Below are positions 44,169-64,000 of a DNA stretch of 64,000 nucleotides, one piece after another (the first letter of the stretch is position 1; each line of letters begins with the position of its first letter). The notes under the pieces are model-generated. The model saw nothing but the letters and a program-made list of their open reading frames with translations, was not told where the DNA came from and did no database searches. The position numbers and the translations under genes are program-made. Origin of the DNA: Obrimoposthia wandeli (taxonomy: Eukaryota); NCBI GenBank assembly GCA_977020255.1, contig CDROCS010000242.1, positions 558,001 to 622,000 of the forward strand, read 5' to 3'.

Positions 44169-45709
44169 CACCTAATCCAACTCAACGGTGATAATAGTCA
44201 TCGTTTTGAATTTCCTATAATAAAGTAATGCAATTTTAGGTCAAATAAATAATACTTACTATAGGAATCACACACTAACTTCAAAATGAACCGTGATAAG
44301 TAAAATCAACGGTGATATAAACATAGAAACACACATACACATACAGACAAGGTACTGTATGTGATTTCATGTATTTCTTATACTATAGAAATTAATTTCA
44401 TTTCAATCGTGATAAGTAAAATGAACCGTGATGCTATTTTGCAAAAAGTTAATGTTCCGGGGACCTCAAATAACGTTGAATTGTAAGTTAATAACTTTTA
44501 TTTTAGTCTATTAATGTTTTAGGATAGATGTATCCTCCGACAGTGAAAATAATACAATACCTTTCAGAGAAAATTTTTCTTTTAATTCTGAAGAAACCAT
44601 GCCATGTAAGGAAAATAGGATTCAAATGTAAGTTATTGATGTTTTAAGTTAATTAATGTTTTAATCAGGGTTCCTCTGTCTGATAAAGCGCACCTAATAA
44701 GAGCCTATGAAGCTGGTGAAGATTATGTTATGCTCGGTAAAATGCTAAGAATAAAGCCCAACACCGTAAGAAACATTATTTACCGATACCGAAAAACCGG
44801 CAAATATACTCAAGGTCCAAAAGGTGGTTCTTTTCTTAAAATTACCGATACAGCTGGAGAAGACTTGATGAGAGAAATAGATCAAAATCCGTTCCTAACC
44901 CTCAATCACATGGCGCAAATTCTGGGCTCCTTCAATAAGGGCTCCTTCAATAAAGAAAAATATATTGCTTTTCTTCAGGAGGTTTGTGAGAAGCTCGAGC
45001 CTCATTTGAAGCACTATTTAATTCACGATAATGCTTCAATCCACAGAGGTATAACTCTACCAAATGAAAACAAGAAGATCGTTAATCTTCCTCCATATAG
45101 TCCCTTCCTCAATCCAATTGAATCAGTGTTTTCAAAGCTGAAATCACACATAAGAAGGCAGATGAATAGTTCTGGACTGCAAGAGACAACATCAGGAAGA
45201 ATTGAAGCGATGCAGACAGTCATAAGTGAAGAAATAGGAAAAGAAGAGTATGCCAACCTCAAGAATTATTACAAGCACATTCAAGATTTTTTTATATGAA
45301 GCCTAGATAAAGAGGATATTTTAGGAGATTGATGTTTTATTTACAAATAAATTAATAAATAATAAATGACTTACATTTTCTTTTTTACTTTCCATTACAT
45401 TCCATTGCGATGTTTTTGTTTCATAACGTGATCATACAGATCACAATTAATCACAAACAAAAACTATATCATTATAAATAAATATAATTATGAGATTATA
45501 TATGATTTCGCTTCATAATGTGATCATAAAGATCACAATTAATCATGTACGAAACCATACATAGCTACAAATACAGTATACAAAAACTGTAATACTACAA
45601 AAGTGTACAAAAACTACACTAGATTTTCTATTTAGTATTGATTTTATGATGCAAATATTGGATGCATCATAATTCACCTGACTCATATCACCGTTCAGTT
45701 GATCAGGTG
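44169..45709 (+). mobile_element. Tc1/IS630-like DNA transposon, 1541 bp, imperfect ~25-bp TIRs, TA target duplication
   Basis: TA|CACCTAATCCAACTCAACGGTGATA ... TATCACCGTTCAGTTGATCAGGTG|TA. Confidence 0.85.
44421..45299 (+). CDS. Spliced, internally deleted Tc1-like transposase: join(44421..44482,44523..44627,44669..45299), 265 aa
   Basis: Two GTAAGT...AG introns (40 and 41 nt) give an open frame MNRDAILQKV...; HTH KPNTVRNIIYRYRKTG; C-terminal LIHDNASIH and LPPYSPFLNPIESVFSKLK; the first catalytic Asp region is absent. Confidence 0.75.
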
Positions 45710-51848: not shown

Positions 51849-54711
51849 ATGGCTGAACATAAATTAAATGTTCCTTTAGACGCTTTCAATGGCGATAAAT
51901 CTTCACTACCCGAATTTTTAAATAGATTTGATTCATTTGCTCAGGCATTGGAATGGACTAATGTAGAGAAACTTAGGGTTTTTCCGGCGTATTTAAAAGG
52001 TACACAATTTATAGAGGATTAAATAACGAACAGAAAGACACATGGGACCATTTAGTTCAGAATTTTCAAAATATGATTTTAGGAGCACAGTCTGAACAAA
52101 ATTACCTTAACCAATTTAGGCAACGTGAACAACATTTTGGAGAACCCACAAATATTTTTGCAGTTGAATTACGAAGATTAGCATTAAAATCATTTCCCGG
52201 AATTGAGGAAGTCTTAAGAGAACGTTTGCTCCTACATCAATTTCTATATGGGCTAAACAGTAAAATAAAAAATCACCCAGCACTACTAGAAGTAGAAAAT
52301 TTTCAGCAAGCTGTAAATAAGGCTCAACTTGTAGAAACAAGATTAAATATGTTACAACAATCTGAAGTTTCAGCATTAACCTTTGAAAAAATACAAAGAC
52401 CTACAACACCACCAAATTTCAATCAAACTCAAAACTATAACCCAAATACACAATCTAATTACCAAAGCCAATATACACCACCGACAAATAACTTTTATAG
52501 AAATCAAACAAACAGAAACTATACAGACTCACAAATTACACAAAGACCTTTCCAAAAAGTACAAATTGTGGACTGCAAAATCACACAATAGAGAATTGTT
52601 ATAAAATAACCAACAACAAATTTTGTAGATTTTGTAAAAAAGACAATCATACTATTGAAACTTGCCGAAAACTGTTATACAGACAAAGTAATAATATACG
52701 ACCACAAAATAATAACTTTAACAATCCTAATAATAATTTCAAAAATACAAATAGTAATTTTAGAAGCCCATATAATAACTTCAGTAATCAAAATAATCAA
52801 GCTAAATATTTTAATACTAATACAAAATTTTGTAAAATTTGTAATATGAAAAATCATAATACTGATGAATGTAGCAAACTAAATACAATGATGAACCAAT
52901 TTGGTAACACAATAATAAAACAACAACAACCACAACCACAGAGTCAAAAAACAGTACAGTTTAACAATCAAAATCAACAATATGCTTACAGAAACCCAAT
53001 ACATACTATTGAAAACACTGATATAACTCAGGAAACAGAAGAAGTTGCATTGATGAGATTAAGGCAACAAGAAATAGATAATCGCTACAAAGAAACACAT
53101 CAGCAATACCAAAACAATGAACAAAACACAAATAGTACCAACTCTCAATCCGAATTCGGAGAAATATTTAGAAACGGTTGTCTAACATTAGAAAAAAGAA
53201 CACAAATAAGTAAAAAAATAAATCAAACCACTCAAACACAAGATAAAAAATCGAAAAATAAAAATAAACAAAAATCACCAAAAAATAGTAAAAATTCAAA
53301 TCTTAAAAATACACATAATTTTAACAAAATCATCCAGAATTTATGGAAAATAATTCAAATAATATTTATGATATGTATAATTACAAATATAATAAAACCT
53401 ATAAATGCTCTTGAAGCATATGATTGTTCAAAATATAGTATTCAAAATAAATATTCACTAATGGATTTACAACAATGCGCCGACGCAGATCCAAATGAAG
53501 TAAAAGTTAAAACCACCAAGTTATTTCATGTATACCAGGAAACAGATTACATAAATACAGAAGTTTTCGAATGTAGAGTACATATGGAGACATTCATAAC
53601 ATATTGCGGACAACACAGCCATAATTCAATTGTTAAACCAGCATTAGGAAAAACACCAATAATTGTTGACGCGTTAAATTGTAAAGATGCTTTTGCAACA
53701 GGCGAACTGAGAATAGATAGAGAAATAAAGGTAAAAGCAATAAAAAACAAAATAATACAACAAATGATTACGGTGGTAGGAACTATCAAATCTGACGGAG
53801 AATGCACAACAGGGTCATATGTCGTAATGGGAGTTAAACAAAGTGGTTTAGTAGTTATAAAAAACTTTGAGGTAGAACTAAGAACATTTAAAACAACATT
53901 TGATCCATCTACAAATACCATGGTGACTATGCCATTCTGTGCAGCAAATATCGGATATTGTAACACAGGATCTTCAATTTTATACTATAAGGTAAAAACA
54001 GACCAATGTAAATTAATACTACTAAAATCAGAAAATTTCCAAATAATTCAAGGTCAAAGATTCAAAGTTGATCCAGAGCTAGATCAACGAATTCCAAAAA
54101 ATATACTTAAAAAATATAGAACTAGAAAAATACAAAAAACATCAACTCCAACTATTTTAATGTCAACAGAACAAGGTTCTGGAATGCGATTTATTAAAAA
54201 GAAAGAGGAATCCCGATGTGACACTCTATTTATACAACTAATTATAAAGGAATATATCTAAGTAAAGAAAAAATTTATAATACAAAAACTACACAAACAA
54301 AATTTGATATAAAAAATTACGATTATTTCAATAATAAATTAGATTATTTTTATCACAAAGGGTTGATGACAATAGAAGCTATCTATAGAGAAACAATAAT
54401 GAATGACTGTAAATTAAATCAAGAAATTTTGAAAACAAAACTAGCAATTATTGCTACAAATCCAGAATTAATAACACCATTATTACCGTTACCAGATGGT
54501 ACTTTCGGAAGAGTAATTGGAGAGGTACTATATACGTATCAATGCCAAAAAGTAATAGTTAATATAAGAAATCACAATAAATGTACCAAAGAATTGCCAA
54601 TTTCATACAAAAATCATTCATTATTTGTAGAACCAATCACCAGAATAATACTTTTTAACACATTCAGCATAAAAGAAATAAACTGTTCAAACATAATGGC
54701 ACCTCATTATA
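51849..54711 (+). pseudogene. Gag-Env polyprotein ORF of an LTR element (capsid, 3 CCHC knuckles, signal peptide, chuvirus-like class III glycoprotein); three -1 frameshifts; 3' truncated by the Polinton
   Basis: Gag LDAFNGDKSSLPEFLNRFDSFAQALEW and FAVELRRLALKSFP...LLHQFLYGL; knuckles (C)TNCGLQNHTIENC, CRFCKKDNHTIETC, CKICNMKNHNTDEC; then IIQIIFMICIITNIIKPINA-LEAYDC...ECRVHMETFITYCGQHSHNSIV...CKDAF; frames rejoin by single-base insertions at about 52008, 52558 and 54237. Confidence 0.8.
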
Positions 54712-54718
54712 AGTAGGT

Positions 54719-54932
54719 GGAAGGATGGAGTCTAAGCCACTTTACCCCCCCCTAAAGGGTGTCACACCATAAAAGGTGTCTTGCCACACCATAAGGGTAT
54801 ATGTTGCCTCACCTCTGGTGAGGCAACATATACCCTTATGGTGTGGCAAGACACCTTTTATGGTGTGACACCCTTATGGTGTGACACCCTTTAGGGGGTG
54901 GGGGGGTAAAGTGGCTTAGACTCCATCCTTCC
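54719..54932. repeat. Long inverted repeat (hairpin), 95-nt arm, TCT loop at 54814-54816
   Basis: The left arm 54719-54813 pairs with 54817-54932 apart from a 16-nt duplication and about 5 extra nt in the G-run. Confidence 0.95.
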
Positions 54933-54962
54933 TTGATTTACTACTATGGTCGTCCATAGTTT

Positions 54963-55400
54963 AAAGGGTCAAGTTGCTTAGTCTCCACCCTTCTTTTTGA
55001 GATATACCACTATGAAAGGGTCAAGTGGCTTAGTCTCCACCCTTCTTTTTGAGATATACCACTATGAAAGAGTCAAGTGGCTTAGTCTCCACCCTTCTTT
55101 TTGAGATATACTACTATGAAAGGGTCAAGTGGCTTAGTCTCCACCCATCTTTTAGTGATCTAGTCTCCACCCATCTTTTAGTGATCTAGTCTCCACCCTT
55201 CTTTTAGTGATCTAGTCTCCACCCATCTTTTTGTGGTCTAGTCTCCACTCTTATTTTTGGTTAACCACTAATTCAAAGGATCAAGTGGCTTAGTCTCCAC
55301 CCATCTTTTTGTGATCTAGTCTCCACCCTTCTTTTTGGCTAACTACTAATTCAAAGGATCAAGTGGCTTAGTCTCCACCCTTCTTTTTTGTGATCTAGTT
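54963..55400. repeat. Subterminal direct-repeat array, core TAGTCTCCAC(C/T)C, 11 copies
   Basis: Cores at 54979, 55031, 55083, 55135, 55161, 55187, 55213, 55239, 55291, 55317 and 55369. Confidence 0.95.
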
Positions 55401-55401
55401 C

Positions 55402-55565
55402 ATAATGAAAATTTATGATAAAGTTCACTCTTAACAATTAAGAAATGTGGTTTTTAACACACACATACACTATTTTATGTGAAATTTATGATAAAGTTCA
55501 CTCTTATCAATTAAGAAATGCGTTTTTTTTTTTAACACACACATACACTATTTTATGTGAAATTT
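55402..55565. repeat. About 80-bp tandem duplication in the Polinton subterminal region
   Basis: AAATTTATGATAAAGTTCACTCTTA...AACACACACATACACTATTTTATGTGAAATTT occurs twice. Confidence 0.85.
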
Positions 55566-55668
55566 AAACTAAAGTTTTTCCTAGGCTTTCACATTTATAG
55601 AATTATAGTAAAATTTATTTAAATAACATAAATTATATATTAAAATAAAATATCCTTAATAAATATAT

Positions 55669-56120
55669 TTATATACAATTTACATAATCAATACATAGAG
55701 AAAAACATTTCAAATAAGCACAATGTTTTCCGTGTTTTCTAAACGGACATCGAATATTTTTGGCATTTTCTTTAAATTTTTGAAACTTTTATTATAATTC
55801 ACAATTCTCAAATTTGGAAACATTCGTTTCACTAAATTAATTTTCTTTCCATCAATAGAATCCATAACATAGAATATTGTTTCAACATCATCAATATGAA
55901 TATCAGAGCTTTCACCTTCAAACCAGGATAACTGATGATGATGATTTATCAAATATAGATTTTTTCTTTTAACTGTAAATGATAAACTACTCCATGGTAT
56001 TTGATTTTTAAACACGTAATGAAATGGACAAGTCATATCATTCACATACATTATACATAATTCCTTTGGAATATATTCTCCATTATTATCAATAAAACAT
56101 TCTAAATCAATAAAAGCCAT
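55669..56120 (-). CDS. Polinton DEDD/DnaQ-like exonuclease-fold protein with Cys/His-rich tail (one -1 frameshift at about 55760)
   Basis: N-terminal FIDLECF...YIPKEL; the shifted frame gives IRCPFRKHGKHCAYLKC*. Confidence 0.6.
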
Positions 56121-56174
56121 TTGAAAATAAAATAAAATGAAATACTAAAATGATATATTTGTTTATACTTAAAA

Positions 56175-56555
56175 TTATTTGTGTTGAAGTTTCAACCATA
56201 AAAGACTCAGAGGTCCGCAGTTTTTAGTTAATGGATTCTGACATTTAACTCGATTATAGTAGACTGAAATGTTTTCTTTTTCAAGTGTAGACACCAACTT
56301 TGCAGGATAATAGAATCCAAAAGGATCAAACACTCGAATCTCGAATCTGTCAACGAATATTGCTATCCAATGCTCGCCTGGTAGATTTGAAGTATGAGTA
56401 TTGATAATGTAACCTCCGGGTTTTAATGATGGAATTTTATCCAATGAATATACTCCATTAAATTTGTTATTCAATAATATTTTTCCGGATTTATGAATTT
56501 CTAAAGTACTAATTTTAATAAAGAATATAATATAAAATAAGCTTACTTCATACAA
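56175..56555 (-). CDS. Adenain-like cysteine protease
   Basis: GVYSLDKIP...INT...PGEHWIA...FDPFG...CQNPLTKNCG (catalytic H, D, Q, C); the true start is probably near ISTLEI. Confidence 0.9.
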   Translation of the reverse strand: MYEVSLFYIIFFIKISTLEIHKSGKILLNNKFNGVYSLDKIPSLKPGGYIINTHTSNLPGEHWIAIFVDRFEIRVFDPFGFYYPAKLVSTLEKENISVYYNRVKCQNPLTKNCGPLSLLWLKLQHK

Positions 56556-57767
56556 TCACAGTTTTATTTTTCGTAATCTGAATTTCGGAATCAAATATTC
56601 CGTAAATCAAAACACTTGTTGGTACGGTCAAAGGAGAATTAAATCTAATTTCAAGTCTTAAATTACCAGTTTTAGGCACTTGAGTAGTGTTTATATCAAA
56701 ATCTGGTGCTAATAGAAAAGTGAAAATCGAACTTCCTGATTTAAAATCAGAAAATCTGATACCATTATTCAAGTTTTTATCTAAAATATTCATATTTCGA
56801 ATAATTGACTGCATATATGCTAATGAAAAATTGTTATTATCTAGATTATAAGTTTCTCGATAATCTGTATTTCTAGCTAATGATATTGTTGAAACATTAA
56901 ATGTATCGAACGTAGAAGATTTAACTTTGTATTCCTTACCACCCTGAGGTGTATCTTTGAAAGCAATCAAAATGAACTTGGGTAAACGATAGTCTCCGAA
57001 TATTTGATCTTTATTAAGTTCCAAAGAACCTGAGGAATTGAATATGTTACTAACTGAGTTTTTCTAATTGGGTAAACTGCATTCTGACTTTGCAAACCTA
57101 ACTGATGTCCAATCATTACTGAAGAATCAACTTTTACTCTTCTAACATACAATCTAGCATCTAGAATTTGAATAATTGGTTTTGAAGTTTCTGAATAGAG
57201 CGAAAAATTATGCTGATTTCTCATAAATCTCAAATGAACATTAATCCCTGGAATCAAATATTTTGGTTGTTCAAAGAAATCTAATCTAATTGAATTACAT
57301 AATGAAAATATTTTAGATTCACTAATCCATTGTTTACGATTTTCTGCTTCATCATCATACCCACTACATTCAAGGTTAGTATACTTGGTATCACTACTAA
57401 AATTCAAAAGAGTATCGAATATAGCCTTATGAGTATACGTTCCATTTCCTCCTTCAACCTTTACATTATTAAGTGTTAGAATAACATCTCTAAACAAAGT
57501 TTGAAACATGTAATTCTCTGGAGTTACATCACTATCTTTCATTAAATCAGTACCATCTTCATTTACAACTTTTAATTTAATATTTAACAAAGTATCATTC
57601 AAATCCAGATAATCTTCTTCAGATGCATGAATATTAAATTCTATGTCATTTAAATTTTTTCCAGTAATTGAATTGATTGGAAATATTTCTTCAAAACATG
57701 AATTTTCAATCACTACTTGAGGTAGTGGTCTATCGAAAATACACAATTCAGATTTTATACTAGTCAT
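56548..57767 (-). CDS. Polinton double-jelly-roll major capsid protein (frameshift near 57030)
   Basis: KSELCIFDRPLPQVVIE, IEFNI...YLDLNDTLL, VRRVKV, then RLPKFILIAF...FTFLLAPD...GNLRLEIRF...VLIYG; ORFs 56967-57767 and 56548-57024 rejoin at IPQ(G)SLELNKD. Confidence 0.88.
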
Positions 57768-58163
57768 TTTGGAAAATAGTACCTTTAAGACGTTTGTTTA
57801 TACTATTTAAATTATTTCTTTTACGTTTAAGACCCTTTCCATTTTGTTCAACACAATTTGCGACTTTATTTAAACTATCAACAGCATTATTTTTTAATTT
57901 TGGAATCAAAGTTTTGACTTCTTTGATTGTATTTTCTTTGAGAGATGAAATTATGTTTTTTGGATTTGTTAACGCAGTTCCTACCGTTTCACCAATTACA
58001 TTGGCAGCACTTGTAGCTGCTGATAAACCAACTTTTTTAACAATGGAATTGCTAATCTAGAAATAGTTTGATACCAACCAGATCCATATTGTTTACCAAT
58101 GAAATAGGGAAGTTCACCGCCCTGTTGACTTTTGCTATAAAATTTTATAATTGATGTATTCAT
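57760..58163 (-). CDS. Small Polinton virion core-type protein (not in the ORF track; -1 frameshift at about 58035)
   Basis: MNTSIIKFYSKSQQGGELPYFIGKQYGSGWYQTISRLAIPLLKK-VGLSAATSAANVIG...GKGLKRKRNN...; basic C-terminus; its TAG overlaps the MCP start. Confidence 0.7.
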
Positions 58164-58204
58164 TTTATATATATATATTTATATTTTAAATATATTTATA
58201 TTGT

Positions 58205-59218
58205 TTATACTTTACGTAAATGAAGAGTTAAACTAGTTTTTGCTCCATATGAAAATGGAATTAAATTACCAGAATCATCACGTATATTTACCTCGATTCT
58301 ATTAATACTTGAATCTCTCATTTTCAAGTACATTGGATTATCAATTTTAACATTTACTACATCTCCATATCGATATTTTAATGATTTTAACCAAATAGAC
58401 TTTAACAGTGGAACATAATCAGATCCTACTAAGACAGAATCTGTTAAACTAGTATAAATATACATTTGATTATATGAGCTAGAAAGTGTTGGTTTTTGAA
58501 AACCTTTAATTCGTTTCTCAAAGAAAACATTATTAAAACCTAATAAAGATGCAAGTTTTTCGTCAAATAAAACTGATTTTACATTTTTCTTTAATAAAAT
58601 ATCAAATAATCCGTCTGAATCTATATTACAGCTTTTAAAAATTTCATTACATTTACTGGCTATAATATTACATAATGAAGTACTATCTTGTATCAAATAA
58701 TTTTGATTAAATTTTATTTCGTATTCATATTCAGCTAAATAATAAATTGTAATTCTCATTTTAGCATGAATATTTTTATTTTTGTCAACAATTTCATCAC
58801 TTGTTATAACATGACTAGAAATTTTTTGTATTTCATTAAAACCTATAATTTTTGATTCTTCTAAAGTTTCGAATTTTAACAACATTCGATGAATACTGTT
58901 AATTGTACTTATTTCTAATTTTTGATTCTTTGTAATTTTGAAATTGAAAACAGTATTTAAATTATTAAAAATTAATCCATTTAAAATTGCAAAAGATACA
59001 TCGAAAGTTTTCATTTCTATCTTTTCCGTTTTATAAAGTATTTTTGAATTAGTTTGTATTGTTAAAGGAGTAAAATTAAATACAAATTCAGTCAAGGCAA
59101 CCTCCCATTCACCATCTAAATTTAGAGAGTTTTCCCAATCTACAGTAAATTGATTGGCTGTATTGTAAGGTTGAGTACTTGGACAACTATTACTAGGTAA
59201 AATAATATATTTTGACAT
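58205..59218 (-). CDS. Minor capsid (penton) protein, 337 aa, intact
   Basis: IILPSNSC...NTANQFTV...LDGEWEVALTE N-terminus; MYIYTSL...PLLK...PMY...IEVNIRDDSGNLIPF C-terminus. Confidence 0.85.
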   Translation of the reverse strand: MSKYIILPSNSCPSTQPYNTANQFTVDWENSLNLDGEWEVALTEFVFNFTPLTIQTNSKILYKTEKIEMKTFDVSFAILNGLIFNNLNTVFNFKITKNQKLEISTINSIHRMLLKFETLEESKIIGFNEIQKISSHVITSDEIVDKNKNIHAKMRITIYYLAEYEYEIKFNQNYLIQDSTSLCNIIASKCNEIFKSCNIDSDGLFDILLKKNVKSVLFDEKLASLLGFNNVFFEKRIKGFQKPTLSSSYNQMYIYTSLTDSVLVGSDYVPLLKSIWLKSLKYRYGDVVNVKIDNPMYLKMRDSSINRIEVNIRDDSGNLIPFSYGAKTSLTLHLRKV

Positions 59219-60242
59219 TATTCAATTTGAGAAGCAAATATCCAAGAAGGTTCAGAGTATCCGTGCCACTTTACGTAATATTGTTTATTCTTACCACGAC
59301 CTTTAGTTTCTAAAATTTCTTGTATTCGATATAGTTTAGGTTTATCAATTAATTGTAACTCTTGTTTATAAAATTTTCCTTTGATGATGACGTTATCAAT
59401 ATCTTTTAAAATATACATTATTGGATTTTGTTTATAATTAATATCATGAATTTGAAAAACCTCATCACTCCAATTTTGATTAAAATTTTTAATAAATGGA
59501 CTTGTACTTATTTTTGATATTCGAACATAATCATCAATTTTATATTTAGATTTAAGTTTCTTTTCTTTTAGATTTTGTTACAACAAAATATCAAATTCAT
59601 TTTTATTATTTACATCTACAGGTTTTAAACCATCTAAACCTCTATGTTTAGAATTATTATAAGCATAAATAATTTTTGGTAATACATTCACCCATTTCTT
59701 ATTACCTTGTTTAGTAAAATATTTCTTTAACCGTTCTCTTAACGTTCTATTAAATCTTTCAACTACTGCAGCTTTATATTGAGAATATACTGAATAATGA
59801 TTGATATTTTCAGTTTTAAATAATTTCTTAACATGTGAATTAAAAAATTCTTTACCTTCATCGGTTTGGATATTTACTGGTACATCATCAACAATTAAAG
59901 ATTCTATTGCATGTAATAAATCAATACCTGATTTTGTTTTAACTCCAACTGCCCTTGCAAAACGACTAAATACATCAATACAAGTTAAAATATACTTGAA
60001 TCCATTATTTACTGAAGAATAAGGAATCATTTCCATTAAATCCATCTGCCATAACGAATTAATACCATTAGTTTTATATGATCTAGTAGGGAATTTACGT
60101 CTTAAAGGTTTATTCAGACTATATGATAATTCATTTCTTAACCATTTTTGTGTGTTTGTTTTTGATTGTTTGACTCTTTTGTCAATTTTTCTAACCCTGT
60201 ATAACCGTCTGGATCTTCTGGATTGTTCCAAATCTTTTCCAT
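59218..60242 (-). CDS. Retroviral-type integrase with C-terminal chromodomain (frameshift at about 60178, in-frame TAA at 59578-59580)
   Basis: Probable true start MEKIWNNPEDPDGYTGLEKL; WQMDL, IDVFSRF, QTDEGKEF, VERFNRTL; chromodomain YRIQEIL...YYVKWHGY. Confidence 0.92.
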
Positions 60243-60389
60243 TGCAGCATGAAGAATTAAAATTTATAAATAAGTTAGACAACTTTGTATTGTTTATCCC
60301 CATTATTATAAAAGTTAAATATATTTTAATCTGTTTATATGTTTGTATAAAACGAATGAATGTAATTATTTTCGTTATTAAGACAACTA

Positions 60390-60799
60390 TCCCCATCTTG
60401 AAGATATAACACTAGCTATTACTGATGCTATAGCGGGCAGTAGGGCTAATATGAATCCACCATTTTGATTATAAATAATGTTTCTTTTATTAATTTTACC
60501 ACGTGAATTTGCTAAATTTATTAATGAATTTTTATATTTTAAAATATTATCATCAGGTTTAATTTTACCATAAATTATTTATTTAAAATTTTTATTAAAT
60601 CATCAACTACATAAATTGGAAATGATTTCAACATTTTCATTTTATTCGTTTTTGGTACGTCAATTAAGGTTTTAAAATAAGGTAAACTTTTTGAAAATTC
60701 AATATTATTACGATCATATAATACAGTATTTATTAATTTTTTAACTTCATCTTTATCTGTCCTTTTACTATGTTTAAGAATACTCTTTTTAAAATTCAT
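60390..60799 (-). CDS. Small basic protein ending in a GG-hydrophobic helix (adenovirus pX-like); -1 frameshift at about 60577
   Basis: ...VDDLIKILNK-IIYGKIKP...LANSRGKINKRNIIYNQNGGFILALLPAIASVIASY; the 3' end is uncertain. Confidence 0.6.
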
Positions 60800-60800
60800 T

Positions 60801-61447
60801 TTATTTTAAAACTTTATTATTATTTATTTGTTTATAGACTGTAATACCATTACGGTTAAATATATCAGTAACAATTCTTAAATCATCAGGACATGATTGA
60901 GTAAAATTTAAAAATAAATAACCATGTGGTAAAGATGTAGCATCATGAAACGCATCAATTAAATAACTATTGTTATGAGGAAATGCTTGACGAGCAATAA
61001 AATCTATCACTGTTTGATCTCTAGGATTTTTGAATAAAATCAAATAATGTACATTAAGATTACGAGTACGATGATTTCCTCCTTGATGAAATAAATTTTG
61101 GGTTATAAAATTACAGTAACTTCTCTATGTCTTGCAATTTTTGTAAATAAATCATTAAAATCAGATTCTTTGTTAGCCTCTTGATATAAGTCATCAATAA
61201 CAATTACATCACCTTTTACAAGTCTTGTCGTCCAATTTTCATCAAAACCGTTAATAATCTTAATGTTTTTTATTTTATTAAATTCTTGGTTTGTTAAACC
61301 AGCTTCTCCATCACCACCTTGATGCCAATATATTTTATTAAATTTATTTTTAAACATTTTTGAATTTAATAATTTACAAACAAATAAAGTTTTTCCGCTA
61401 CCACTTGGTCCTACTACTTAAAAAGTCGAATTGTTTGTTAATAACAT
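60801..61447 (-). CDS. FtsK/A32-like DNA packaging ATPase (TAA at 61418-61420, frameshift at about 61105)
   Basis: Walker A VVGPSGSGKT; Walker B VIVIDD; RH...TQNLF...RTRNLNVHYLILFKNPRD. Confidence 0.92.
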
Positions 61448-61535
61448 TATATATAAATATTAATATAAAATAAATATATCAGAATAAGTACATGTTTATA
61501 ACAATAACAACATTTTATTAAATATTTATTAAACA

Positions 61536-61856
61536 TCAAAATATTCGGTCGCTGTATGAATCGGTCCAGATGAGACTTCTTCCATCTTCTTGAATATCCG
61601 AAATCTTTGTTTCACCATAATTAATTAGAAATTGTTTCGTATTTATATAATTTTTTTTAATGTATGTCATGATATCGTTAACTTGATCTTGAAAATCTAA
61701 ATTTCTAAGACCTAAAATTACGACCTTTCCAGATGTGAAAATATTTACACACAATGGATTGAAAATATTTAATCTTAAGCCTGGGAAAACCTCAGGGTCA
61801 AATGAACATGCGTTAATAAGTTTAATGTTTTGTACAATAAATTGACTTGTAAACAT
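61536..61856 (-). CDS. TATA-binding-protein-like single-repeat protein carried by the Polinton
   Basis: SFDPEVFPGLRL...VNIFTSGKVVILG matches the TBP repeat consensus SYEPELFPGLIY...LLIFVSGKVVLTG. Confidence 0.75.
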   Translation of the reverse strand: MFTSQFIVQNIKLINACSFDPEVFPGLRLNIFNPLCVNIFTSGKVVILGLRNLDFQDQVNDIMTYIKKNYINTKQFLINYGETKISDIQEDGRSLIWTDSYSDRIF

Positions 61857-62805
61857 AATTTATTTTTGATATATTTTCAATTTAATATGTTGTAAGTTAT
61901 TACTTTAATATAATTTACAACAAAAACTTCAAGTAGTTTACTTATTAAACATAAGTTTAATGTTTTGTACAATAAATTGACTTGTAAACATAATATATTT
62001 ATGCATATATTAACTTTAATATGTTGTAACTTATTACTTTAATATAATTTTCAACAAAAACTTCAAGTAGTTTACTTATTAATCATAAGTTTAATGTTTT
62101 GTACAATAAATTGACTTGTAAACATAATTTATTTTTGATATATTTTCAATTTAATATGTTGTAAGTTATTACTTTAATATAATTTACAACAAAACTTCAA
62201 GTAGTTTACTTATTAAACATAAGTTTAATGTTTTGTACAATAAATTGACTTGTAAACATAATTTATTTTGATATATTTTCAATTTAATATGTTGTAAGTT
62301 ATTACTTTAATATAATTTACAACAAAAACTTCAAGTAATTTACTTGTAAACTACAATATTTATTTGTTGTTGTATATATTCAGTTTAAAATGTTGTAAGT
62401 TATTACTTTAATATAATTTTCAACAAAAACTTCAAGTAGTTTACTTATTAATCATAATATTAATGATTGATCAATAAATTGACTTGTAAACATAATATAT
62501 TTATACATATATTCACTTTAAAATGTTGTAAGTTATTACTTTCATATAATTTTCAACAAAAAAAAAACTTCAAGTAGTTTACTTATTAAACATAAGTTTA
62601 ATGTTTTGTACAATAAATTGACTTGTAAACATAATTTATTTTGGTATATTTTCAATTTAATATGTTGTAAGTTATTACTTTAATATAATTTACAACAAAA
62701 ACTTCAAGTAATTTACTTGTAAACTACAATATTTATTTGTTGTTGTATATATATATATTCAGTTTAAAATGTTGTAAGTTAATACTTTAATATAATTTAC
62801 AAATA
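61816..62805. repeat. Tandem array of about 134-bp units (about 8, some shortened)
   Basis: The ATGTTTACAAGTCAATTT motif on the minus strand has its ATG at 61856, 61991, 62125, 62259, 62493 and 62632. Confidence 0.92.
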
Positions 62806-62989
62806 TCGTAACAACCAAGTTAACTTACCAGATAACTGTGTAGTTAAGGTAATTTATCATTTAGTCTGAAACAATGAATACCAAATCGCCTACAATGCAT
62901 GTATAATTTTAATTGTCAACTACAGTAAACTATAATTACTCTTTGTGTACAGTAATAATTTCCAATATATTAAAGTAAACATTTACAAA

Positions 62990-63235
62990 ATATAATCTGT
63001 TTACAAGTCAATTTATCATACAAATCCTTAAATTATGATTAATAAGTAAACTACTTGAAGTTTGTTGTTGTAAATATATTATGTTTACAAGTCAATTTAT
63101 CGTACAAATCATTAATATTATGATTATTAAGTAAACTATTTGAAGTTTTGGTTGTAAATTATATTAAAGTAATAACTTACAACATATTAAAGTGAATATA
63201 TGCAAAATTATATTATGTTTACAAGTCAATTTTCG
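62990..63235. repeat. Inverted copies of the 134-bp unit
   Basis: The plus strand carries TTTACAAGTCAATTT, GTAAACTA.TTGAAG and AAAGTAATAACTTACAACATATTAAA, the reverse complement of the 61816-62805 units. Confidence 0.88.
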
Positions 63236-63526
63236 AATGTCTAGTAAACAAATTTAAATAACTCGAAAAAACATTTACTATTCGAAATAATAAACTTAAT
63301 AGTACTTTATATTTGAAATTTATGTTATATGCAGTGGGCGGGGTACAGCAACTAACTTTATAATTAAAATATTTTATAGTTTAAGGTTAAAATCACTTGA
63401 TAAAAACCACAATAATGTGATAAAGAATATTATTTAACATATAAAATGAATTTTTGAAGAAATAAATTGAATATTCATATTATATTAAACGGACAATGGC
63501 AAAAATATCAAGTAATTTAAAAAAAA

Positions 63527-64000
63527 ATCAAACTATCGACACTCTTATTTTTTAAAATTACATTCACTTGCTAAACCCACTTACTTGTATTGAAAATTCA
63601 AACTATCAATCACTTGCTCGTCATACTTGCATTCAATCTAACTATAATTTATTCAACAAAAACTCTATTTTAATTTACTTATAGTCTAAATTACACTTGC
63701 ATTCAATCAAACTATCGACACTCTTATTTTTAAAATTACATTCACTTGCTAAACCCACTTACTTGTATTGAAAATTCAAACTATCAATCACTTGCTCGTC
63801 ATACTTGCATTCAATCTAACTATAATTTATTCAACAAAAACTCTATTTTAATTTACTTATAGTCTAAATTACACTTGCATTCAATCAAACTATCGACACT
63901 CTTATTTTTAAAATTACATTCACTTGCTAAACCCACTTACTTGTATTGAAAATTCAAACTATCAATCACTTGCTCGTCATACTTGCATTCAATCTAACTA
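63527..64000. repeat. Tandem array of 178-179 bp units, at least 2.6 copies, continuing past the window end
   Basis: AACTATCGACACTCTTATT at 63531, 63710 and 63888. Confidence 0.95.

Follow-up and report, generated by a model that had tools for sequence, protein, structure and literature searches.

The window analysed here is a stretch of 64,000 nucleotides from Obrimoposthia wandeli. It harbours a 10.8-kb Polinton copy that runs from position 54712 to G000:C242:623506, beyond the end of the window, with AGTAG...CTACT ends and a 6-bp target-site duplication (TSD). The near flank (54706-55600) comprises the TSD at 54706-54711 and the terminal inverted repeat (TIR) starting with AGTAG at 54712, whose inner edge is approximate. 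On the minus strand, an A32-like packaging ATPase gene (60801-61447, frameshifted here; Pox_A32 E 3e-6 for the family-B copy) is followed by a basic core-like open reading frame (ORF) starting at 60799, an rve integrase gene broken by frameshifts (59218-60396; Pfam rve E 2.6e-10), two large ORFs, a C5-type protease gene (downstream of position 56688; Peptidase_C5 over the cut-off in the relative L075) and a small last ORF (55710-56120), nuclease-like by eye and without a Pfam match. The two large ORFs are called putative minor capsid (58205-59218, no profile match) and putative major capsid (56548-57767, split here) genes from gene order and size only; a jelly-roll capsid check on both gave no Pfam or PDB match, and hhalign to an Alpha-type capsid gave 0.3%. 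Intact copies are ~12 kb long and carry PolB on the opposite strand. These elements thus have TIRs with AG-rich ends, 6-bp TSDs, a protein-primed PolB, an rve integrase, an A32 ATPase and a C5 protease, like the adintoviruses, Mavericks and Polintons described in the consulted parts of PMC8502044 and PMC8097293; for PolB, PF03175 matches lie beside their TATA-binding protein (TBP) loci, e.g. on C1914 and C232.

Other elements surround this copy. The Polinton interrupts a Gag-like ORF and a broken envelope-like gene (52073-54716, plus strand; Pfam Monjiviricetes_fusion, E 9e-30 and 6e-23), with an LTR-element-like pol beyond its far end (L021), and a Tc1/mariner-type DDE transposase fragment (Pfam DDE_3) is present at 44730-45299 on the plus strand. 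Elsewhere in the genome, nested or adjoining Polintons of different families are common (G000:C2441, C1363, C2184, C6587, C796), and the N-terminal part of one PolB (L024:7638-9995, minus strand) has an endonuclease VII-like domain (E 5e-6). Within the Polinton, a small conserved ORF of 57-81 residues (~60130-60303 in the window, minus strand) overlaps the start of the integrase gene in another frame. It starts with MG, contains a Cys-Cys motif and is found in families A, B, C and E and in L071 and L072. Judging from its motifs, we take it to resemble a myristoylated/palmitoylated membrane protein.

An intronless ORF of 106 residues (61536-61856, minus strand) lies ~90 nt upstream of the ATPase gene and is co-oriented with it. 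The preliminary description had taken it for a single-repeat TBP gene captured by a Polinton. Its homology to TBP was borne out by a PF00352 search (E 5.4e-7, 29.8 bits against a cut-off of 22.9), and the motifs FDPEVFPGL and IFTSGKVVILG, the orientation and the location inside a Polinton are all as described. As had also been proposed, the eight core genes given for Polintons in the consulted parts of PMC8502044 and PMC8097293 do not include TBP.

The 'half-saddle', however, is an artefact. A 134-bp tandem repeat begins at 61816, inside the ORF, and the 98.9% match between the window copy and the intact copy L010 ends exactly at 61815; the repeat end seen at 61816 recurs at many unrelated loci of the genome. 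Residues 1-14 (61816-61856, minus strand) are therefore repeat DNA and a chance product of its insertion. Residues 15-106 correspond to residues 91-182 of a 182-residue protein, so what remains here is the 3' half of a TBP gene of the Polinton (61536-61815, minus strand), coding for the TFIIB stirrup, strands S2' to S5', helix H2' and the tail. It amounts to less than one whole lobe with a repeat-derived start. The segment before the EPE motif had been described as a shortened strand and helix; it is indeed shortened, by deletion of strand S1' and helix H1' of lobe 2.

The dispersed repeat element at the deletion junction (61816-63232) is made of 134-bp units, with inverted inner copies at 62948-63232 and one sharp end common to dozens of loci. 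From the junction to the far inverted repeat, whose end is at G000:C242:623506, there are a 178-bp tandem array (63526-64000 in the window) and ~60 bp of the PolB end; the copy lacks the rest of PolB and the first 90 TBP codons. The same junction was found at four places only in the genome, in copies 99.3-99.4% identical to that of the window and flanked by four different 6-bp TSDs. As each has its own TSD, the deleted form has integrated at least four times, and we infer that such copies are mobilised in trans. This non-autonomous Polinton, with no PolB, half a TBP gene and two internal repeat arrays, also occurs on C242 near 988000-999000, on C2594 and on C2556.

Most sister copies carry both lobes of the gene. 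We scored 150 of 24,724 candidates in a search of this genome with TBP, and ~127 of the 150 listed are in open frames of at least 190 residues (hand count). The full ORF of 182 or 184 residues is present at 29 of the 31 family-A loci examined, and at least four further Polinton families of this genome carry a TBP gene. In families C, D and E, the gene has a GT..AG-type intron of 36-40 nt at one position in lobe 1 (10 loci, some of them decayed). The loci are L043, L046, L049, L051, L054, L055, L057 and L060, as well as L041 and L042, and splicing is predicted. The intron points to transcription by Pol II, as far as can be read from sequence. In four sequencing runs from one sample, coverage was flat across the intron and no spliced joint was among those listed; these runs look like DNA. 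Vertebrate Mavericks are reported to be intronless in the consulted parts of PMC8502044 and PMC8097293, unlike the three families here.

Beyond this genome, we found 17 close homologues and 53 clusters at E<=1e-30. On metagenomic contigs L071, L072 and L074-L078, the TBP gene adjoins Polinton ATPase, integrase or protease genes, but its position varies, as it lies after the last late gene in L074-L078. A scan of viral contigs with the TBP alignment returned six weak loci resembling cellular or giant-virus TBPs, and one with capsid and ATPase queries returned no match.

The gene is under purifying selection in both lobes, which argues against a random fragment. Between families, pS is 0.56-0.92, near saturation, against a pN of 0.15-0.44, in both lobes, and omega is 0.07-0.33 in the 10 between-family comparisons with a computable dS; within families, there are almost no differences between copies from which to derive dN/dS. 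In a 43-row tree, whose labels 'euk', 'arc', 'short' and 'long' were assigned by reading the sequences, the Polinton TBP family forms one side of a branch with 100/97 support, apart from host and other cellular TBPs, and the short forms are set apart by a 97/86 branch. A clade uniting the family with host TBP was rejected (p-AU 0.032). Judging from these sequences, the Polinton TBP is not a recent capture from this host. The host set itself comprises two paralogues back to back, ~1.2 kb apart (L031/L032, G000:C238), an intronless divergent TBP at two loci (L034/L035; C60, C1092) and a further divergent paralogue (L033/L036; C968).

The intact product is predicted to be a full two-lobed TBP saddle in one chain. 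The AlphaFold2 model of the 182-residue protein, built on a 17-row alignment, has high confidence over residues 1-150 (pLDDT mostly 95+ over 1-140) and shows ten strands, with five strands and no helix in lobe 1 (residues 1-61) and a complete lobe 2. VIA-align superimposed residues 1-150 on the whole Sulfolobus TBP (Z 13.3, rmsd 2.8, 145 residues aligned; Z 6.9 for the next, unrelated fold), all 44 of the 44 matches listed by Foldseek in the PDB at E<=0.001 are TBP structures, and hhalign against cellular TBPs gave 99.4%, spanning both lobes. The homodimer that had been envisaged is thus not needed. PF00352 scores one lobe of the intact protein over the curated cut-off (44.3 bits), and both lobes in the longer relatives P0115, P0120 and P0128.

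The N-lobe helices H1 and H2 are deleted or shortened, according to length accounting and the predicted model, so that helices are not present on both lobes. The H2 stretch is 21 residues long here, with a median of 23 in 142 family rows versus 34 in 16 cellular rows. P0115, P0120, P0128 and their kin keep H1 and a short H2, together with the R/M/N signature of the family on the DNA face (pLDDT 93.5 for P0120). The loss of N-lobe helices is graded, since these more distant relatives retain them in part. Taken as modelled, the intact family is a whole, stripped-down TATA-binding protein.

We mapped functional residues onto a 147-row family alignment in yeast numbering, using the contact list in Table 1 of PMC12529657. 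Three of the four intercalating phenylalanines are kept (F116 in 124/125 sequences, F190 in 141/143 and F207 in 139/141). The F99 column holds Pro in 114/118; N-lobe columns near F99 may be off by one residue, and Phe is absent either way. N69, P191 and V213 are also conserved. By contrast, positions that contact DNA carry near-invariant replacements that make this face polar, namely V122 to R (124/126), T124 to M (143/143), N159 to S or T (143/145), V161 to T or S (143/144) and L205 to N (141/142), and mostly V71N and I194R. According to the same Table 1, V122, V161 and L205 are also polar in KSHV ORF24, and T124 is changed.

The surfaces for partner proteins have fared differently. The acidic TFIIB stirrup positions, as defined in the consulted part of PMC7221094, are kept (E or D at E186 in 137/143 sequences, E188 in 139/143). 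That source describes viral TBPs as generally diverged at the TFIIB site, unlike the Polinton family. It also assigns the binding of TFIIA, TAF1, Brf1/2 and Mot1 to the basic patch of H2 in the N-lobe, the helix that is reduced here. The ~12-kb element encodes neither TFIIB nor RNA polymerase; a search for TFIIB domains gave only 12 matches among 29 genome candidates, versus hundreds of element copies, and the ORF maps leave no room for such a gene. In the host genome, the TFIIB gene is divided into exons.

A TATA-like box, TATAAACA, became apparent in the gene cluster when the sequence upstream of each gene was inspected. TATAAAC is the top of all 7-mers (50 occurrences versus 11.1 expected), with nine in the window copy. 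In the sense orientation, it occurs 9, 8, 8, 11, 3, 7 and 4 times in families A, B, C and E and contigs L071, L072 and L075, respectively, where 1.5, 1.0, 1.1, 1.2, 0.6, 0.6 and 0.8 are expected, and 0-1 times in the antisense. TATAAA[AT] is not enriched, and the box is fixed on C at position 7. NATAAAC[AG] is found within 110 nt of 31 of the 35 downstream starts, at 29 to 107 nt from the ATG and mostly at 29-53 nt, the other four having none in that interval. No such box precedes any of the 15 TBP starts. Nine of these are preceded instead by a canonical-type TATA, located 33-40 nt before the ATG in eight cases, while six have none by the pattern used. One PolB-side ORF, in family E, also has a box.

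In the window, all the boxes are on the minus strand. TATAAACA precedes the ATPase gene (61493-61500; 53 nt before the ATG in an intact copy). It recurs in the 3' end of that gene, at a distance of 37 nt from the basic core-like ORF downstream (60829-60836), as well as 36 nt before the small MG...CC ORF, which has its own box, and the integrase start (60332-60339). A variant, AATAAACA, lies in the 3' end of the integrase gene, 71 nt before the putative minor capsid gene (59282-59289); in A, C, E and L071, the box at this position is separated from the integrase stop by 68 nt. Further copies of TATAAACA are found before a pX-like ORF (58202-58209), 35 nt before the putative major capsid gene (57795-57802), inside that gene upstream of the C5 protease (56688-56695) and ahead of the gene that closes the cluster, at a distance of 47 nt (56160-56167). 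In-frame boxes use rare codons at homologous places and are conserved where a synonymous change would have been free. Upstream of the putative capsid gene, the reading T.ATA.AAC is common to A, B, C, E and L075, although AAC makes up 12-16% of Asn codons in A, B, C and E.

Alpha-type Polintons of the same genome, found with PF21738 and PF08398, served as a control group (a PF03175 search returned the TBP families again). At the 10 loci examined, no TBP match was found inside Alpha-type genes; three matches nearby are part of adjacent elements of the TBP type, in which the box is again present. Two Alpha-type Polintons bounded by TIRs have 0 and 0 sense boxes versus 2.2 and 1.9 expected, a comparison in which TBP and box are confounded with lineage, as these are close copies of one lineage.

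From these sequence patterns, we consider it likely that the intact Polinton TBP is a late-promoter factor. The prediction is that it binds TATAAACA ahead of the genes for packaging and the putative virion proteins, bringing in TFIIB and Pol II of the host. An action on the AT-rich promoters of the element itself, as the preliminary description proposed, is thus probable. Its other proposal, a decoy for host partners, is weakened because the surface for TFIIA, TAF1, Brf and Mot1, N-lobe helix H2, is the missing part.

A broader form of the decoy idea is the alternative that survives best, although we regard it as improbable. It holds that TATAAACA serves as a weak TATA box for host TBP or a host paralogue and that the full-length Polinton protein has another function, for instance to titrate TFIIB of the host or to occupy promoters of host genes. 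C:G at position 7 of the TATA box is poorly tolerated by cellular TBP. Structure 1qn3, which is among our PDB matches, is by its title a cellular TBP crystallised on the C(-25) adenovirus box, whose sequence is presumably TATAAACG. Host TBP can therefore bind the box sequence, which keeps this alternative alive, and the conserved TFIIB stirrup and the several TBP paralogues of the host are also in its favour. Patikoglou's work of 1999 is said to have found that cellular TBP binds the C(-25) variant only via a Hoogsteen pair that makes room for the intercalating Phe, and the loss of F99 fits that account. However, near-invariant new residues on the DNA face would be superfluous in a pure decoy, the box is fixed on C at position 7 with no enrichment of TATAAA[AT], and the TBP gene itself avoids the box, which is absent from the two TBP-less Polintons.

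It is distinctly less probable that ATAAACA is a site for a host forkhead protein or another activator unrelated to the TBP gene. The forkhead motif is RYAAAYA, and the 7-mer fits this core. Yet ATAAACA occurs 54 times in sense and 4 in antisense, versus 6 and 2 for GTAAACA and 18 and 30 for ATAAATA; moreover, T precedes 50 of the 73 sites, and there is one site per gene with promoter-like spacing.

Slightly less credible again is a role of Polinton TBP on element DNA in replication or packaging rather than transcription. TBP-fold lobes do occur in non-transcription proteins (PMC7221094, in the part consulted), and the TBP gene often adjoins that of the ATPase, but its position varies, the boxes precede genes and conservation is equally high at the TFIIB stirrup and on the DNA face. 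We think it very improbable that the box is the polyadenylation signal of the preceding gene. Head-to-tail packing does bring sites before a start close to the previous stop, and TATAAA resembles AATAAA; however, of 15 gene ends with no boxed gene after them, 13 lack the box, and 11 of these 13 have AATAAA or ATTAAA. In addition, some conserved sites are located within coding frames, at depths of 68, 111 and 144 nt, and cleavage there would cut the frame. The least believable reading, a natural single-repeat TBP acting as a homodimer, could appeal to Pfam scoring only lobe 2 in the full protein, to many ~103-residue database rows starting at MGCK and to a short form common to four copies, but the sister copies have already refuted it: what looks like a short form is a repeat fusion lacking one strand and one helix of its sole lobe, selection also acts on the N-lobe, and the MGCK rows correspond to the second exon of intron-bearing families, looking single-lobed because the intron splits lobe 1.

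If the Polinton TBP is indeed a late-promoter factor, host TBP/TFIID would transcribe its gene early, from an ordinary TATA box. The viral TBP would then bind TATAAACA with its C-lobe on the 5' TATA half, so that the remodelled N-lobe (F99 lost, V71N, V122R, T124M) would meet the C:G pair at position 7. This orientation of lobes on bases we take for the most part from known TBP-DNA structures; that the C-lobe sits at the 5' end of TATA is also given in the passage of PMC12529657 on P191 and the first T. Relative to host TBP, the viral TBP would be expected to prefer TATAAACA, with C at position 7, over TATAAAAG. As the element encodes neither a TFIIB nor a polymerase, the E-P-E stirrup of the protein would dock the TFIIB of the host, and without helix H2 the protein would escape Mot1/BTAF1, TAF1, TFIIA and Brf. 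The packaging and virion genes would thus be switched on by the viral TBP with host TFIIB and Pol II. Because such a factor would work in trans, deleted copies, which have all the boxes but no PolB or whole TBP, could be expressed and moved by intact ones. We would give about an even chance to the more general proposal that, across a large branch of Polintons, the switch from early to late transcription is run by the elements themselves with a single minimal protein, a saddle of ~145 residues that may be re-tuned to C at position 7, using host TFIIB and Pol II and invisible to Mot1, TAF1, TFIIA and Brf.

How does this protein compare with known TBPs? It shares with the cellular TBPs of eukaryotes and archaea (PF00352) a ten-stranded two-lobed saddle, F116, F190, F207, P191 and the acidic stirrup; it differs from them by its core of ~145 residues with H1 and H2 of the N-lobe deleted or shortened, the loss of F99, conserved new residues at six to seven DNA-face positions and its separate clade. 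In beta- and gammaherpesviruses, a viral TBP redirects host Pol II to a TATA variant of late genes, according to the consulted part of PMC12529657. The resemblance to these proteins (KSHV ORF24, HCMV UL87, EBV BcRF1), which have a polar DNA face partly at matching positions and a TATA-variant box before late genes, is one of mode of action only. As described in the same part, ORF24 is a multidomain protein of 752 residues with five partner activators, all four phenylalanines and no TFIIB acids, whereas the Polinton protein is a bare saddle (family cores of 144-184 residues) that keeps the TFIIB acids and lacks the additional Pol II-binding and C-terminal DNA-binding domains of ORF24 and UL87. 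The boxes also differ, TATTWAA in herpesviruses versus TATAAACA here. By fold matches and the consulted parts of PMC7221094 and PMC10132985, the TBPs of Nucleocytoviricota and mirusviruses are likewise divergent, with an N-lobe regulatory surface that is not conserved. However, most of those viruses encode a TFIIB and a polymerase themselves, and the TFIIB site of their TBPs has diverged, whereas the Polinton element has neither gene.

Viral TBPs acting at late promoters are thus already known from herpesviruses (ORF24) and giant viruses. What is added here is the truncation, the deleted copies, probably mobilised in trans, the intron in the TBP gene, a map of its residues and the controls for poly(A) signals, forkhead sites and TBP-less elements. 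For Polinton TBP, our literature search, which covered open-access text and part of the supplements, turned up nothing beyond the label 'TBP', given in a figure legend of PMC8502044 for elements of non-animal data sets and repeated in bioRxiv 10.1101/697771. One supplement of PMC8502044 contains no match to TBP or TATA, and the word 'promoter' is absent from its main text. The search returned no account of how Polintons transcribe their virion genes.

Animal-type Polintons could be transposons, or else viruses whose cycle is regulated, a question of long standing. A dedicated TBP and a promoter with one box per gene would make a concrete, testable late-gene switch, and capsid expression might best be sought in cells that express the Polinton TBP gene. 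Both truncation, as in the window, and the lobe-1 intron are possible sources of single-repeat annotations in this family. The family may also represent a natural deletion test of TBP, in which, to judge from conservation, the regulatory N-lobe helices would be dispensable and the TFIIB stirrup would not, with specificity apparently moved by a few residues. If the proposed switch is true, endogenous Polintons would have an orthogonal TBP-promoter pair and a programmed viral cycle, together with a trans-acting factor that lets deleted copies spread.
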